A stretch of 32,000 bases of DNA from Telmatocola sphagniphila. GTDB taxonomy: Bacteria > Planctomycetota > Planctomycetia > Gemmatales > Gemmataceae. The number at the start of each line of letters is the position of its first letter. Position 1 is the first letter of the stretch. The stretch covers positions 6,060,001 through 6,092,000 of the forward strand of contig NZ_CP074694.1 in assembly GCF_018398935.1 (NCBI RefSeq), in the 5' to 3' direction. The notes beneath the pieces are model-generated. The model saw nothing but the letters and a program-made list of their open reading frames with translations. It did no database searches and was not told the origin of the DNA. The position numbers and the translations under genes are program-made. Shown one piece after another: positions 12,801 through 22,926 of the stretch.

Positions 12801-13958
12801 TTATTTACTTTTGGTTTTGGCGGGAGGAGACGGTTTGGAATCGCTTCCGGAACCGTTGAAAATCAAGAACCAGCCAACGAGTCCCACTAACCAGGTAACG
12901 GCGCCAATCATCAACCAGGTGCTGGTTTTGATACCGCCTTCTTCCTTCCGGGGCAGGATCGGTGCCGAGGAAGTTTCTTCATCCGAGTAGTTCTCCAGCG
13001 AACCGGAGAAAGCGTTGTGAGGTTCCGGCAACTCTTCTTCAGACAGCGGTTCGGTGTGCGGTTGAGTGATCTGCACCGAGCTGCTGAAGGCCTGAAGGGT
13101 TTGTGCGATTTCGATCACGGTCGGTCGTAGAGCGGCATCTTTGCTCAAACAGCGTTCCACGAGATCTGCGACGATGGGATCAACATCGTTTCGGAGGGTG
13201 TCGAGTCGAGCAGGGTTAGACTGCTGAATCAAAAGCAGCACTTCAATGGGGCTACCCGCTTGAAAGGGCGTTTGAGCCGAAAGTAGGTAGTAGAGGCAAG
13301 CTCCCAGGCCGTAAGCATCGGTACGGGAATCGAAAGCGGTGCTACCGATGCGTTCCGGAGCAAGAAACTCGACCGGGCCGAGATCGGCCTCAGGATCGTA
13401 GGGGCGGTCGTGAATGGTGGGACGCTGCGGCAGAAGGCCGACATCGGCCACCTTGATGCTGGAATCGGGAGAAGGGCGGAGCGATTTGCTGCCGTCGCCG
13501 CGGATTTTTTCGACGACCGGTTGGAGCATTAGGCTACTCGGCGAGAGCCAACCCTGGTAGAAACCGGCATCGTGAGCCGCCTGGATTCCGGTCGCCGCCT
13601 GCCGGATATACTCGCAGGCCAGCGATTGCGGCACGGCCCCCATTTCGACGACGAACTGATTCAGCTCGGCCGATTGGAGATACTCGCTGGCGGTGTACGG
13701 AACGCCGTCTTGCAAACCGGCATCGAGGGTGGCCACCAGATGCGGATGGTGCATGGCCGTGGCAGCTTGAACGCGCAGGGCATATTCTTCGGGCGATTCG
13801 AAATTCTTGAGAAGTTCCGGGTCCCAGCGACGCAGCACCACGGGTAATTGGAGCGTCAGATGATCCGCCCGATGAACTTGAGCTAACAGGCTTTTAGAGA
13901 GTTGATCCCCAATGCGGTAATCGCCGAAATTCAACGGTGCACCTTTTCGAAAATCCAA
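12801..13958 (-). CDS. Tail-anchored Ser/Thr-kinase-fold protein with degenerate catalytic motifs (predicted pseudokinase)
   Basis: Kinase-fold landmarks are retained: HHPHLV after an alphaC-like Glu, DVG in place of DFG, APE (FLAPERI), DAYGLG and ALRP. The G-loop reads LSKSLLAQV, VAIK-Lys reads VVLRR, and HRDLKPxN reads YQGWLSPSS. A C-terminal TM helix (TWLMIGAVTWLVGLVGWFLIF) is present. The only available start near the 5' end is a TTG at 13958, so the start is uncertain. Confidence 0.65.
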   Translation of the reverse strand: MDFRKGAPLNFGDYRIGDQLSKSLLAQVHRADHLTLQLPVVLRRWDPELLKNFESPEEYALRVQAATAMHHPHLVATLDAGLQDGVPYTASEYLQSAELNQFVVEMGAVPQSLACEYIRQAATGIQAAHDAGFYQGWLSPSSLMLQPVVEKIRGDGSKSLRPSPDSSIKVADVGLLPQRPTIHDRPYDPEADLGPVEFLAPERIGSTAFDSRTDAYGLGACLYYLLSAQTPFQAGSPIEVLLLIQQSNPARLDTLRNDVDPIVADLVERCLSKDAALRPTVIEIAQTLQAFSSSVQITQPHTEPLSEEELPEPHNAFSGSLENYSDEETSSAPILPRKEEGGIKTSTWLMIGAVTWLVGLVGWFLIFNGSGSDSKPSPPAKTKSK

Positions 13959-14013: not shown

Positions 14014-14481
14014 TCAGACCGTATCGTTTCGTGCATTCCGCTCCTGAGCGAACTTCTGGATTAAAAGTCGTTGTTCCTCGGTCTCTACCGAGCCGGGACG
14101 GAGCATTCGAATATGGTTGATGGCATCGTCCCCCGGCATCCCTTTGGAGACCAGGTAGAGAGCCAGAACCGTGCCGGTGCGCCCTTTACCGGCGAGGCAA
14201 TGGACCATGATGCCCATATTCGAATCGCGGGCCTTTTGAATCACCCGCAGGCATTTCTCGATATCTTCCGTGGTGGGAACAGTCATATCTTCAATCGGGA
14301 CGTGAACGTTCATCAAGCCCTGATTGTCGATCCATTTGCGGGGCAGGGCCTGTTCGGTAAGAGTCAGCACGATATCGATTCCCTGATCCCGTAACCAGGC
14401 GAGCTCGGTTTCATCGTGCGGCATGGCCGAGGCCGCCAGAAACGGCTTTTCGATCCAGGAAAATCCATAAGGCTGAGACAT
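14014..14481 (-). CDS. Dual-specificity (Cys-based) protein phosphatase
   Basis: The HCxxGxxR(T) P-loop is intact (VHCLAGKGRTGT) in a roughly 155-aa DSP-sized protein. The start is set at ATG 14481 (MSQPYGF). The track start at 14502 is a TTG only 5 nt from the upstream gene stop. Confidence 0.85.
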   Translation of the reverse strand: MSQPYGFSWIEKPFLAASAMPHDETELAWLRDQGIDIVLTLTEQALPRKWIDNQGLMNVHVPIEDMTVPTTEDIEKCLRVIQKARDSNMGIMVHCLAGKGRTGTVLALYLVSKGMPGDDAINHIRMLRPGSVETEEQRLLIQKFAQERNARNDTV

Positions 14482-14506
14482 CACTGTCCTTTTAAGGCCC
14501 AAAAAA

Positions 14507-19756: not shown

Positions 19757-20470
19757 ATGTTGCTCCTCACCTTGGCTATGTTATTGGTTATCTCCCCTGT
19801 TTCGCGCGCTGCCGAATCGGGGTTCATTGACAAGACTTTCAAAAACGCGGATGGTACAGAATCCAAATACGTGGTATTCGTGCCGCACGACCTGAAGCCG
19901 GATGCTCATCCGCCGATTATTCTTTCGTTGCATGGTTCGGGAGAAACCAAGGGTGGTAGCAAGATGCCGGTGGAAGTGGGGATCGGTACCGCCATTAAGA
20001 AGCGGGAAAAGACTTTCCCCTTTGTGGTGGTGATTCCCCAATCGGAAAAGCGAACCTGGCAGGCGACCAGCGAGGACGGCCAGCGGGCTTTGAAAATGCT
20101 GGAAGCAACTGAAAAAGAATACAAAACCGATCCGAAACGGGTCTACCTGACCGGTCTTTCGATGGGCGGATACGGAACCTGGAGTATTGCGGCCAAGTAT
20201 CCCGATCGCTGGGCGGCCATCGTGCCGATCTGCGGTGGCGGCGATCCCAAGAACGCGGAAGCGATCTGTAAGATTCCCTGCTGGTGCTTCCACGGCGATA
20301 AAGACGCCGCCGTGAAGGTGGAACGATCCCGGGAGATGATCGAAGCATTGAAGAAAGCGGGCGGCGAACCGAAATATACCGAGTATCCCGGTATCGGTCA
20401 TAACAGCTGGGACAAGGCGTACGATACTGACGAACTCTACGTTTGGTTGTCGAAGCAGAGCAAGAAGTAG
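19757..20470 (+). CDS. Secreted alpha/beta-hydrolase (carboxylesterase / PHB-depolymerase-like predicted peptidase family)
   Basis: It has a signal peptide (MLLLTLAMLLVISPVSRA), an oxyanion-region LHGSGE and the nucleophile elbow GLSMGG. The acid and His regions are FHGDKDAAV and GIGHNSW. Confidence 0.8.
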   Translation: MLLLTLAMLLVISPVSRAAESGFIDKTFKNADGTESKYVVFVPHDLKPDAHPPIILSLHGSGETKGGSKMPVEVGIGTAIKKREKTFPFVVVIPQSEKRTWQATSEDGQRALKMLEATEKEYKTDPKRVYLTGLSMGGYGTWSIAAKYPDRWAAIVPICGGGDPKNAEAICKIPCWCFHGDKDAAVKVERSREMIEALKKAGGEPKYTEYPGIGHNSWDKAYDTDELYVWLSKQSKK

Positions 20471-20485
20471 TGCGGGTAAAGCGAA

Positions 20486-20890
20486 ATGATCGAACTGCCC
20501 ACATTCGAGCAGATTGGAAAAACGATAGGAGCATTGATCCAGACCGATGGGAAAATAACGGTGCTAGTGAGCGGTTATGAAGGGCCAGGAAAAGGAGTTC
20601 GCGGTATTCCCAAGATGAATGGGCTCATAAAGGCGCATGTGGAAGCTCAGGCCGCCGTGCTTATGCGAATGCGGAATCTTTCGCAAGCTACCTTGAGAAT
20701 CAATCGCGTACCTTGTCCAACGATGAATGTGAAAGTGCTGGGTTGCGACGAAGCGTTGCCTCACATGTTGCCGGAATCAGCGAGTTTGACTGTTATCGGT
20801 CCGGACGAGTTTTCGAGAGAATATATTGGGAAAATGGATCCTCCTCGAACGAGAATTCAAGGTCTTGAGGGAGCGATTGAATTTGCATGA
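20486..20890 (+). CDS. Stand-alone SCP1.201/DddA-like nucleic-acid (cytidine) deaminase toxin domain
   Basis: A 134-aa ORF. AHVEAQAAVLMRMRNLSQATLRINRVPCPTMNVKVLGCDEALPHMLPESASLTVIGP parallels the DddA toxin core as I recall it (GHVEGQSALFMRDNGISEGLVFHNNPEGTCGFCVNMTETLLPENAKMTVVPP). That includes the HxE zinc/catalytic motif (H51/E53, nt 20636-20644), the Cys ligands C77 and C87, and the LP..LP...L.V tail. Upstream, SGxxGP (VSGYEGPG) also matches. No signal peptide or N-terminal trafficking domain is present. Confidence 0.75.
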   Translation: MIELPTFEQIGKTIGALIQTDGKITVLVSGYEGPGKGVRGIPKMNGLIKAHVEAQAAVLMRMRNLSQATLRINRVPCPTMNVKVLGCDEALPHMLPESASLTVIGPDEFSREYIGKMDPPRTRIQGLEGAIEFA

Positions 20891-21330
20891 CAATCGAAAC
20901 ATCTACCAAAGTCTGGGCTTTTCACAATTCGAACTCCGACGAGAAGGCGGAGTTGGATAATATCGATGATCTTTGGGATCATCTGGATAACTTTCGAAAA
21001 CGCTATTCGAATTCAGTTGGTATCTTGATCGCTCCGGATGGGCAGCACTTGAATCTCGGTCGTTCGAATGTTATGAACGACTACACCGTACTACCGCAGG
21101 AATTGGGATACGTCGAACATTGTCCCGCCGACGGGAATCCACCGTATCTAGCACCGGTAGAAGATCCTTCAATCAGTATCGGAGATGGAATACTGGTTTT
21201 CCGATATGCGGATGAATTATCTGAAATACCGCGTCGTTATTGCGTGAAGCTATCGAAAATGAAAGAAATTGTACGTCATTTTATGGCGACGAACCGATTG
21301 CCCGACTGGATAATGTGGGAACAGATTTAA
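20887..21330 (+). CDS. Putative cognate immunity protein (Imm1-like)
   Basis: The start ATG overlaps the toxin stop (ATGA at 20887-20890). It is a 147-aa acidic cytoplasmic protein whose C-terminus (IVRHFMATNRLPDWIMWEQI) resembles the conserved Trp-containing end of the Imm1 family associated with deaminase toxins (Pfam PF14430, from memory). Position and size fit polymorphic-toxin immunity genes. Confidence 0.55.
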   Translation: MTIETSTKVWAFHNSNSDEKAELDNIDDLWDHLDNFRKRYSNSVGILIAPDGQHLNLGRSNVMNDYTVLPQELGYVEHCPADGNPPYLAPVEDPSISIGDGILVFRYADELSEIPRRYCVKLSKMKEIVRHFMATNRLPDWIMWEQI

Positions 21331-21357
21331 AGCGATCACTTAATTGGGAGTTTTAAT

Positions 21358-22926
21358 ATGAGTGAACTGGATCGACGCGGTTTTATAGCCGCAGCTTCTG
21401 TCGCCGGCACGGCGATGGCCATGACCGCGAAGAGCTACGCCAATGTGCTGGGCTCCAACGGCAAAATCAACGTCGGCTTCCTCGGTGTCGGCGGACGATG
21501 CCAGCAGCACATCGACGTCGTCCTCGACATGAAGGAAGAAGGCAAGGACGTCGAACCCTTCGCCGTCTGCGATGTGTGGGACGGCGATGAGACCCTGGGC
21601 AATCGCAGCAATCCGAAACACAAAGACAAACGCAAAGGGCGCGGCCTTTATCCTTCGGCCAAGACCTGCGGCATCGATGCCAACGACAAGACCCGTGTGA
21701 CGAAGGATTATCGCAAAATCCTCGAAAATAAAGACGTCGACGTCGTCTGCATCGCCGCTCCCGACCACTGGCATGCTCGCATGGCCATTGACGGCTTGAA
21801 TGCCGGCAAGCACGTCTACTGCGAAAAGCCGATGACCCGAACGGTCAACGAAGCCTGGGAACTTTACAACACCTGGAAGAAGACCGGACAGGTTATGACC
21901 GTCGGCGTGCAGTCGATGGCCGACCCGACCTGGCTTGAAGCTTACAAGTACATTCAAGCTGGGAACTTGGGACATATCTTCCAGGGCCAGACCAGCTACT
22001 ATCGCAACTCCGATGTCGGCCAGTGGCGTTATTATCCCCTCCGTAAGGAAATGACCCCCAAGACCATCGATTGGGATATGTGGCTGGGAACCGGATTCGA
22101 ATGTGCCGGTCAGAAGATTGGCCCAACAGCCAAAGAAATGCCATTCGACCGAGCCGTGTGGGCTCAGTGGCGCTGCTACTGGCCGTTCGGCGGCGGTATG
22201 TTCACCGACCTGTTCGTTCACCAGACGACTCACCTGCTGGCCGCCATGGGTCTGCGGGAACCGGCTCGCGTGGTCGGCGCGGGCGGGATCTACTTCGAAT
22301 ACGACGGCCGGGACGTTCCTGACGTCGCGACGGTGGTAGCCGATTACATCGAAGGTGCTCAGGTCATCATTTCCGCGACGATGTGCAATGGCACCCAACT
22401 GGGTGAAGTCATCCGCGGTAAATTGGCGACCATTAAATTTGGCGATAACATCGGCGGCGACTACGTCTCCGGTTTCGACGTCTTCGGTGAAGCGGTGGCC
22501 GGTGGGGCCGCCAAACCGACTGGCGGCTACAAGGAGCCTATCCACTCCTATAAGAGCCCGTTTGTCGGCAAGCAGGGCCTCAACGCCACTTACAATCTCT
22601 GGGCGAACTTCCTGGAGTGCGTCAAGGCTCGCAAGCAGGAAACCCTGTCCACGCCGTTCCTGGGGGCTTCGGCCTTTACCACGGTCAACCTGGGCGTGCA
22701 GTCTTACCGCAAGGGCAAGGCTTACATGTTCGATAAGGAATCGCATCTGGCCAAGGATGCGGACTCCAGCTGGGCCGACAAGTGGGAAGCTCGCTCGAAA
22801 CAGCGCGGCAAGCCGAACAATATCATTGGCTGGGCCGGGGGCGACAAGGGTTGCTCGCTGCATCCGCCGGAATACCAGAAGCTGGAAGGCCCCTGGGTTG
22901 ATGGCAAAGATCCTGCCGCAGGTTGA
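21358..22926 (+). CDS. Gfo/Idh/MocA-family oxidoreductase with a Tat signal (paralog of 25007..26473)
   Basis: It has a Tat motif (DRRGFIAAASVAGTAMA), a Rossmann start (VGFLGVGGR) and APDHWHARMAIDGLNAGKHVYCEKPMT. It shares long colinear strings with the 25007 gene (RVTKDYR, MPFDRA.WAQWRCY, PPEY.KL.G.W..G.DPA). The antisense 507-aa ORF 21340..22863 is treated as a shadow. Confidence 0.85.
   Translation: MSELDRRGFIAAASVAGTAMAMTAKSYANVLGSNGKINVGFLGVGGRCQQHIDVVLDMKEEGKDVEPFAVCDVWDGDETLGNRSNPKHKDKRKGRGLYPSAKTCGIDANDKTRVTKDYRKILENKDVDVVCIAAPDHWHARMAIDGLNAGKHVYCEKPMTRTVNEAWELYNTWKKTGQVMTVGVQSMADPTWLEAYKYIQAGNLGHIFQGQTSYYRNSDVGQWRYYPLRKEMTPKTIDWDMWLGTGFECAGQKIGPTAKEMPFDRAVWAQWRCYWPFGGGMFTDLFVHQTTHLLAAMGLREPARVVGAGGIYFEYDGRDVPDVATVVADYIEGAQVIISATMCNGTQLGEVIRGKLATIKFGDNIGGDYVSGFDVFGEAVAGGAAKPTGGYKEPIHSYKSPFVGKQGLNATYNLWANFLECVKARKQETLSTPFLGASAFTTVNLGVQSYRKGKAYMFDKESHLAKDADSSWADKWEARSKQRGKPNNIIGWAGGDKGCSLHPPEYQKLEGPWVDGKDPAAG

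Follow-up and report, generated by a model that had tools for sequence, protein, structure and literature searches.

A 32-kb stretch of the chromosome of Telmatocola sphagniphila (Planctomycetota, Gemmataceae), called the window below, contains two short overlapping open reading frames (ORFs). ORF1 is a member of the DddA-like deaminase family, also known as SCP1.201 or BaDTF1, and ORF2, which directly follows it, is an Imm1 immunity protein with a predicted DddI fold. An initial annotation of this DNA had described them as a deaminase toxin and a translationally coupled Imm1-type gene. This first reading is correct, and the pair belongs to a well-described toxin-immunity family and not to a new kind of system. 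We hold the identity and the biochemical mechanism of the pair, taken without its role, with high confidence. The whole statement, namely a horizontally acquired cassette of a stand-alone BaDTF1 toxin and its cognate Imm1 protein that serves as an orphan module, is in our view probable and held with moderate confidence. The positions of both ORFs and of their overlap are those that were originally annotated:

20486-20890, + strand: ORF1, ATG start, 134 aa, stand-alone cytosine deaminase toxin (BaDTF1, SCP1.201, Pfam DddA-like)
20887-21330, + strand: ORF2, ATG start, 147 aa, acidic Imm1-family immunity protein (DddI/Sddi-like inhibitor)
20887-20890, + strand: ATGA overlap, start codon of ORF2 on the stop codon of ORF1 (translational coupling), read directly from the sequence

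The Pfam profile match, the invariant residues, the structure models, the homology to Imm1 genes and the fold matches to DddI only all agree with this assignment. The public record that is 100% identical to ORF1 is named 'hypothetical protein KIH39_24325' (WP_213496391.1), and our analysis gives this protein a functional annotation.

The deaminase and its immunity partner

ORF1 matches the Pfam family PF14428 (DddA-like) with 58.5 bits at a gathering cutoff of 25 (E-value 8.4e-16). The match spans residues 11-109 and profile positions 24-126 of 137, and the same tag is already present in the public precomputed annotation. When 1.84 billion representative proteins were searched exhaustively with HMMER, 431 relatives of ORF1 came up at E<=1e-3, nearly all of which share the pattern HVE...PC-x(2-14)-GC. 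The sequence family match is therefore far beyond chance. Word-indexed searches with ORF1 and ORF2 returned essentially the queries only, and neither protein had a match in NCBIfam, PADLOC (E<=10) or PHROG.

The motifs of ORF1 are S29-G-x-x-G-P34, H51-V-E53-A-Q55, I72-N73, P76-C77, G86-C87, L91-P92, L95-P96 and L101-x-V103. The signatures of the SCP1.201 clade are [HD]xEx[KQ] in helix 2, an N that closes strand 3, and PC...C (Iyer et al. 2011, PMC3239186); they fit H51-V-E-A-Q55, N73 and P76-C77...G86-C87 of ORF1, respectively. In an alignment of 88 sequences H51, E53, N73, C77 and C87 are invariant. The motif order and four of these residues (H51, E53, C77 and C87) had been named correctly from the sequence alone. 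The predicted zinc ligands are H51, C77 and C87, with E53 as the predicted catalytic residue.

The AlphaFold2 model of ORF1, computed with the 88-sequence alignment as input, has a predicted local distance difference test (pLDDT) value of 94.2 and a predicted template modelling score (pTM) of 0.89. Its elements follow each other in the order strand-strand-helix(HVE)-strand-helix-strand-strand. When the model was compared with the PDB by Foldseek, the top 10 matches were all DddA or DddA-type structures (9jo8, 6u08, 8e5d/e, TOD4/6) with a probability of 1.00 and template modelling (TM) scores of 0.59-0.64, and cytidine deaminases of the CDA type ranked after them. HVE and C87 of ORF1 align to HVE and the second Cys of DddA. 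The deaminase fold that had been predicted for the toxin is thus borne out by the model, which falls in the C-terminal-hairpin division and has DddA as the closest solved structure.

ORF1 has none of the fused N-terminal trafficking, repeat or pre-toxin domains of a complete polymorphic toxin. Pfam sees the deaminase domain alone, followed by a tail of 25 residues, and no signal peptide or trafficking domain was found in the protein. An in-frame TAA lies just two codons before the ATG and leaves no room for an N-terminal domain. A close relative, P0004 (locus L003 of the metagenome-assembled genome GCA_025933995.1), is a 1134-aa DUF6531/Rhs protein that is 52% identical to ORF1 across the toxin domain; a VgrG gene and two DUF2169 genes lie upstream of it. 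The Rhs core of P0004 closes with ...YADPLGL, which contains the DPLGL cleavage motif, and the toxin then opens with QPPGPTPGGNTLPPYDGGKT. The starts of ORF1 and of two further close relatives, P0003 and P0005, fall within the linker of P0004 after DPLGL. Judged by these alignments, ORF1 is a bare toxin tip, equivalent to the fragment behind the Rhs autocleavage motif of P0004.

ORF1 shares with P0003, P0004 and P0005 a Cys-Cys loop of 9 residues (PC-PTMNVKVLG-C; ORF1 residues 77-87, window 20714-20746). Across the family the Cys spacer ranges from 2 to 14 residues, with a commonest length of about 5, and DddA itself has a CxxC (2). The 9-residue loop sits where DddA contacts DNA, and substrate recognition may be altered accordingly.

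The initial annotation had placed ORF1 in a family of double-stranded DNA (dsDNA) cytidine deaminases, which goes too far. Editing of dsDNA was found only in an 11-member DddA subclade, and the tested PF14428 members outside it edited single-stranded DNA (ssDNA) and not dsDNA (Huang et al. 2023, bioRxiv 10.1101/2023.05.21.541555). ORF1 is remote from DddA, with ~23% identity, a phmmer E-value of 0.03-0.6, a TM score of about 0.6, a root-mean-square deviation of 4.5-4.8 A and a different Cys loop. Because of this distance and the subclade result, ssDNA is more likely than dsDNA to be the substrate of ORF1. That ORF1 could be a true DddA-type enzyme specific for dsDNA is suggested by its best solved structural matches, which are the dsDNA deaminases DddA and the TOD4/TOD6 domains, by the alignment of its HVExQ helix and C-terminal LPE..L.V strand with DddA, and by the DddI fold modelled for its partner. 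However, DddA comes out as the top match by default, as no Sdd structure is present in the PDB, and the Cys-Cys loop differs (9 residues compared to 2 in DddA) in the very region that contacts DNA. A partner of the Imm1 type also speaks against it, in so far as the Sddi inhibitors of ssDNA deaminases, described below, come from a family that we take to be the same. We consider dsDNA specificity improbable; this bears on the substrate alone and leaves the role of the pair untouched.

For ORF2 the Pfam evidence taken alone is at the limit. The Imm1 profile (PF14430) was matched with 22.4 bits, which is exactly the cutoff (E-value 2.2e-4), and over residues 74-145 only. The Imm1 assignment proposed earlier was matched in Pfam but only at threshold, and was settled by homology and fold. 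ORF2 is 38% identical (BLASTP E-value 3e-30) to the PF14430-annotated Imm1 gene product behind the free-standing toxin P0005, and 29% identical (9e-16) to the one behind the Rhs toxin P0004. A profile built from ORF2 and 21 genes that lie downstream of toxins retrieved 131 proteins, mostly PF14430 members and several of them named Imm1. The AlphaFold2 model of ORF2, with database homologs as input, shows a central sheet and two helices (pLDDT 84.4). Across the whole PDB only three chains match this fold significantly, and each of them is a DddI chain (6u08_B/D/F, TM 0.63/0.74). Moreover, the best match of the Imm1 profile among PDB sequences is DddI (E-value 0.002), over the full length and with the C-terminal Trp aligned. 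Because of these lines of evidence we regard ORF2 as an Imm1 immunity protein despite its Pfam score, with the DddI fold indicated by the model.

The description of a small acidic protein with an Imm1-like, Trp-containing C-terminus also holds. The isoelectric point of ORF2 is 4.89, its C-terminus reads ...LPDWIMWEQI, and W144 is nearly invariant across Imm1 relatives; a PPY motif (85-87), P86, Y87 and F105 are conserved as well. Acidic DNA mimicry is common to the immunity proteins of BaDTF1-3, and the acidity of ORF2 fits this type of inhibition (PMC13346905). An insertion of ~11 residues (ORF2 residues ~61-72) is common to ORF2 and the Imm1 protein of the P0005 pair on locus L002 (L002:6438-6911). 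It is absent from the other 20 aligned Imm1 homologs, and the pLDDT of the ORF2 model is about 59 there.

By analogy with characterised relatives, ORF1 would bind zinc via H51, C77 and C87 and, by means of E53, convert cytosine in DNA to uracil. Such deamination would cause mutations, and would kill the cell once the DNA is broken by uracil excision. ORF2 would be translated by coupling at the ATGA overlap and would bind ORF1 tightly, with an acidic, DNA-mimicking surface that covers the DNA-binding face and the active site. This inhibitor mechanism is suggested by the models of ORF1 and ORF2, which match the two partner chains of 6U08, DddA and DddI.

Insertion into an esterase-oxidoreductase junction

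The pair is compositionally foreign and is inserted into an otherwise conserved junction of two genes:

20471-21357, no strand: low-GC inserted segment with the toxin-immunity pair, recognised by composition and by empty junctions elsewhere
19757-20470, + strand: secreted alpha/beta-hydrolase esterase (Pfam Peptidase_S9/DLH/Esterase), upstream half of the conserved junction
21358-22926, + strand: GFO/IDH/MocA oxidoreductase (Pfam PF01408/PF22725), downstream half of the conserved junction

The GC content of the pair is 0.47, both overall and at third codon positions (GC3), compared to a GC3 of 0.60-0.73 in the flanking genes. Spacers of 15 nt upstream and 27 nt downstream surround the pair, and the gap between the esterase and the oxidoreductase gene amounts to 887 nt. 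We collected 47 loci with esterase homologs (47-74% identity) from metagenomes. In 31 of them the next gene after the esterase homolog is a GFO/IDH/MocA oxidoreductase homolog, and in about 28 of the 47 the junction is empty, with the oxidoreductase gene within roughly 50-300 nt (mostly 80-150) of the esterase gene. None of the 47 loci has a toxin or immunity sequence. At the borders of the segment, searches for target-site duplications and for inverted or terminal repeats yielded only short chance matches. The pair is an example of a toxin-immunity cassette placed in a conserved housekeeping junction for which the empty site can be demonstrated.

The same arrangement is present on an environmental contig (L001), which differs at 4 positions in 1364 nt, with no change in the toxin gene and one in the immunity gene. 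Neither a promoter-like site on the + strand between the esterase gene and ORF1 nor a terminator after ORF2 was found. Because of this and the short spacers, transcription of the pair probably reads through from the esterase gene. ORF1 shares its reading frame with the esterase (window 20468-20488: TAG, two codons, TAA, two codons, ATG), and a read-through fusion of the two proteins was considered and rejected, as two stop codons lie between them. The esterase has a signal peptide; any such product would be a secreted esterase-toxin fusion, which is unlikely.

A different cassette of two closely packed genes occupies this junction in another organism (L129:1500-2294, metagenome contig Ga0163152_10026453). 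Its products are a DUF6941 protein of 133 aa and a protein of 129 aa with a weak LuxR/GerE-like helix-turn-helix, and the gap measures 892 nt compared to 887 nt in Telmatocola. Small cassettes may land at this junction repeatedly.

The initial annotation had placed the pair among housekeeping genes, and the surroundings agree with this. Within the window the neighbours include genes for an M16 peptidase, the esterase, GFO/IDH/MocA oxidoreductases, a PMT glycosyltransferase, isocitrate dehydrogenase and argininosuccinate synthase. The 32 kb are free of Rhs, VgrG, PAAR, secretion, transposase and phage genes, and no full-length toxin gene lies in the 11-20 kb on either side of the pair. The window also has no tRNA genes and no match to Rfam families.

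Relatives and known systems

A scan of species-representative genomes yielded 80 loci; these, the window and a small number of loci collected before gave a tally of 89 toxin ORFs. The scan loci belong to Myxococcota, Actinomycetota, Chloroflexota, Proteobacteria, Firmicutes, Verrucomicrobiota, Spirochaetota and others. At least 10 planctomycete genomes, including those of Limnoglobus, Gemmataceae and Gemmatales, carry the toxin family, and fusions to PT-HINT and to Rhs+PT-TG occur among the planctomycete relatives. The range of BaDTF1, listed in the cited papers for Proteobacteria and Actinobacteria, is hereby extended to a cultured planctomycete and many other phyla. A tblastn search of plasmid and phage record collections gave no match.

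An Imm1-like gene lies behind 56 of the 89 toxin ORFs. In about 24 of the 89, some of which are truncated fragments, there is room for an N-terminal extension of <=45 residues only. When five short relatives (P0003, P0005, P0010, P0052 and P0149; 116-133 aa) were inspected, each of the five turned out to have an Imm1 gene directly behind the toxin, and in two of them the start and stop codons overlap. The closest relatives P0003, P0004 and P0005 are all followed by Imm1, and at L087, L086 and L003 toxin and Imm1 are separated by 3-nt gaps or overlap by 4 nt or 1 nt. A free-standing toxin-Imm1 pair is thus a recurrent architecture and not a planctomycete oddity, and the earlier remark that the annotator was not aware of a described pair of this kind in a planctomycete-type chromosome does not make the Telmatocola pair unusual. 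The free-standing toxins do not form a clade apart from the fused ones in pairwise identities, which is consistent with repeated cassette shuffling. For the same reason one ancient lineage of free-standing toxins was no longer considered. At L096 a 592-aa toxin with Imm1 is followed by a bare toxin with Imm1; this layout of a full toxin with an orphan matches the orphan-cassette model of Iyer et al. 2011 (PMC3239186).

Some loci of the survey are worth describing on their own. The toxin-Imm1 pair of P0005 (L002:4790-6911, on a 7.77-Mb ENA metagenome contig) lies 20 nt downstream of a gene for a 396-aa protein with SepQ_C/FliMN_C domains, which belong to type III and flagellar sorting platforms; the GC content of this pair is 0.64 compared to 0.69 in its surroundings. 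DddA-like toxins were also found on 23 IMG/VR contigs called viral (L088-L110; e.g. L092:928-1887, L101:1036-2127 and L105:416-1795). Most of these are 300-460 aa long and have an N-terminal region of 200-350 aa without a Pfam match, followed by Imm1. The region may be an undescribed trafficking domain, or the contigs may be tail-like secretion loci that were miscalled as viral. N-terminally truncated DddA-like fragments that start in the middle of the domain, often beside an intact Imm1, occur at L014, L022, L039, L047, L052, L059, L060, L067 and L068. They look like decayed orphan toxins with a retained immunity gene.

The pairing of SCP1.201 with Imm1, stand-alone cassettes and the presence of Imm1 in planctomycetes were all described in 2011-2012 (PMC3239186, PMC3482391). 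The family was renamed BaDTF1 in 2021 and mined for base editors in 2023-2024. With the SCP1.201 and Imm1 (SCP1.202) modules of those papers the Telmatocola pair shares the signatures of the toxin clade, the alpha+beta fold and conserved C-terminal Trp of the immunity protein, and an immunity gene directly downstream. Stand-alone toxin cassettes without trafficking modules had also been conceived there. However, those cassettes were described from neighbourhoods with a complete toxin gene, whereas the Telmatocola pair has none within 11-20 kb and sits in a housekeeping junction. In addition, the clade was listed for Actinobacteria and beta-proteobacteria, and the present host is a cultured planctomycete of the Gemmataceae.

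DddA and DddI from Burkholderia cenocepacia's type VI secretion system (T6SS; PDB 6U08, 8E5D/E) are the nearest solved structures for both partners, with a TM of 0.60-0.64 for the toxin. They have in common with ORF1 and ORF2 the HVE catalytic helix, the acidic immunity protein and the order of toxin and immunity gene. The DddA deaminase, however, makes up the C-terminal domain in a large protein delivered by the T6SS, whereas ORF1 consists of such a domain and nothing else. They also differ in the Cys spacing (CxxC in DddA, C-x9-C in ORF1) and share only ~23% identity. Specificity for dsDNA and for 5'-TC is a feature of DddA that may not extend to ORF1, and DddI is related to Imm1 only at the profile level (E-value 0.002). 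The Rhs effector P0004, with its Imm1 encoded 3 nt downstream, shares with ORF1 52% identity in the toxin domain and the same 9-residue Cys-Cys loop. P0004 has ~1000 aa of DUF6531/Rhs/YD-shell sequence before DPLGL and the VgrG and two DUF2169 genes upstream, whereas ORF1 has none of these.

Most likely, the functional analogues of ORF1 and ORF2 are the Sdd-Sddi pairs. We take the InterPro entry IPR025680 to be equivalent to Pfam Imm1. The Sddi inhibitor family was drawn from this entry (PMC13034033). Like the Telmatocola pair, these systems consist of a PF14428 deaminase of ~130-160 aa followed by an inhibitor of 136-140 aa (bioRxiv 10.1101/2023.05.21.541555; PMC13034033). The Sddi proteins, encoded directly downstream of ssDNA deaminases of the SCP1.201 clade, gave 100% inhibition by binding and not by degradation (NAR 2026, PMC13034033). 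They have a DddI-like fold, as modelled for ORF2, and block the DNA-binding face by tight binding. In contrast to the present pair, the tested examples come from Actinobacteria, and no planctomycete member has been reported as tested.

Modest distinguishing features of the Telmatocola pair are its isolated insertion with an empty site, its planctomycete host and its C-x9-C subclade. As a natural minimal deaminase of 134 aa with a matched off-switch of 147 aa, it could also be added to the pool of compact base-editor candidates. This value is tempered by the hundreds of comparable proteins, several of which have already been engineered.

Role of the pair

The pair raises the question of what a catalytically intact deaminase toxin without a delivery system does inside a culturable host. 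In the explanation that we favour, the cassette would be an orphan polymorphic-toxin module whose main benefit is immunity against related deaminase toxins of neighbouring bacteria. Its own toxin would be held inactive and serve either as a reservoir for recombination or as a self-stabilising addiction element. We regard this role as the most likely one because ORF1 has no delivery domain and no full-length toxin is encoded nearby.

Several observations weigh against this explanation. The start codon of ORF1 is a clean ATG that coincides exactly with the boundary of the domain, and every catalytic residue has been kept. Short free-standing and catalytically intact forms recur (P0003, P0005, P0010, P0052, P0149) at no more than ~50% mutual identity, a hint that an active stand-alone toxin is under selection. 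Upstream of ORF1 there is no Rhs-core homology tract for recombination, and the complete toxin gene that orphan cassettes have nearby is absent from the window. The window is 32 kb of a 6.6-Mb genome, and a full-length partner toxin or a secretion system elsewhere is possible.

The best placed of the alternatives, which we nevertheless consider unlikely, is an autonomous intracellular toxin-antitoxin or abortive-infection module. Here the deaminase would never be exported; freed from Imm1 on phage infection or stress, it would mutate or destroy phage or host DNA, or transiently raise the mutation rate. ORF1 indeed has no trafficking domain or signal peptide, its translationally coupled two-gene layout resembles type II toxin-antitoxin modules, and the pair stands isolated where it is inserted, with housekeeping genes around it. 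The five short free-standing pairs with intact catalytic residues, a DNA methyltransferase near the pair at L087 and the 23 family members on contigs called viral point in the same direction, and deaminase-based defence has precedents in other folds and families (AvcD, RADAR). However, most of the viral-contig members have the N-terminal extensions of 200-350 aa described above and therefore look like delivered toxins. Neither protein is matched in PADLOC or PHROG, the plasmid and phage record collections gave no tblastn match, and the Imm1 protein has no DNA-binding or autoregulatory domain. Characterised Imm1 relatives are stable and tight inhibitors, not labile antitoxins (PMC13034033), and the nearest relatives of ORF1 include a bona fide effector linked to Rhs and VgrG. 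We are slightly more doubtful about the general form of this idea, in which the bare pair, recurrent in diverse bacteria, would be an intracellular abortive-infection or addiction system or a conditional hypermutator and not the leftover of a delivered toxin. If true, BaDTF1 and Imm1 would make up a new class of defence or toxin-antitoxin system, in which a deaminase is held in check by a DNA-mimic inhibitor and freed on phage attack or stress.

More doubtful again is the export of ORF1 as a cargo effector, loaded non-covalently on an apparatus encoded elsewhere (Hcp, VgrG or PAAR of a T6SS, an extracellular contractile injection system or an unknown planctomycete route) and used against competitors. 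ORF1 corresponds to the released tip of an Rhs/T6SS effector with fully conserved catalytic residues, and on L002 the FliMN_C/SepQ_C gene ends 20 nt upstream of the free-standing homolog. The planctomycete fusions to PT-HINT and Rhs indicate that the phylum does deploy the toxin. On the other hand, no adaptor, chaperone, VgrG, Hcp or PAAR gene was found within the 32 kb. ORF1 has no spare residues that could act as a loading signal, with the Pfam domain beginning at residue 11 and a tail of 25 residues, and the insertion lies inside a housekeeping operon and not in an effector island.

A dead orphan cassette without current function, kept only because its insertion is recent, would fit the foreign composition, the lack of a delivery domain and the decay of truncated toxins beside intact Imm1 genes elsewhere (L014, L022, L047, L052, L060), but is very improbable, as both ORFs have intact starts, stops and invariant residues and confidently folded models, the pair recurs in a second environmental strain, where the toxin gene shows 0 changes and the immunity gene 1, and an intact toxin would be lethal if uninhibited, so that at least ORF2 should be under selection.

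Apart from the pair, the window contains a gene for a 162-aa dual-specificity phosphatase (14014-14502, - strand) that adjoins a Ser/Thr protein kinase gene (12801-13958, - strand) and a gene with an RF-1 domain (ArfB-like). The best Pfam models for the phosphatase are 'Swiss Army Knife' and 'polymorphic toxin system DSP-PTPase' (PF22784, PF22785). Although a toxin-system model is among the top matches, this neighbourhood probably serves ordinary signalling.

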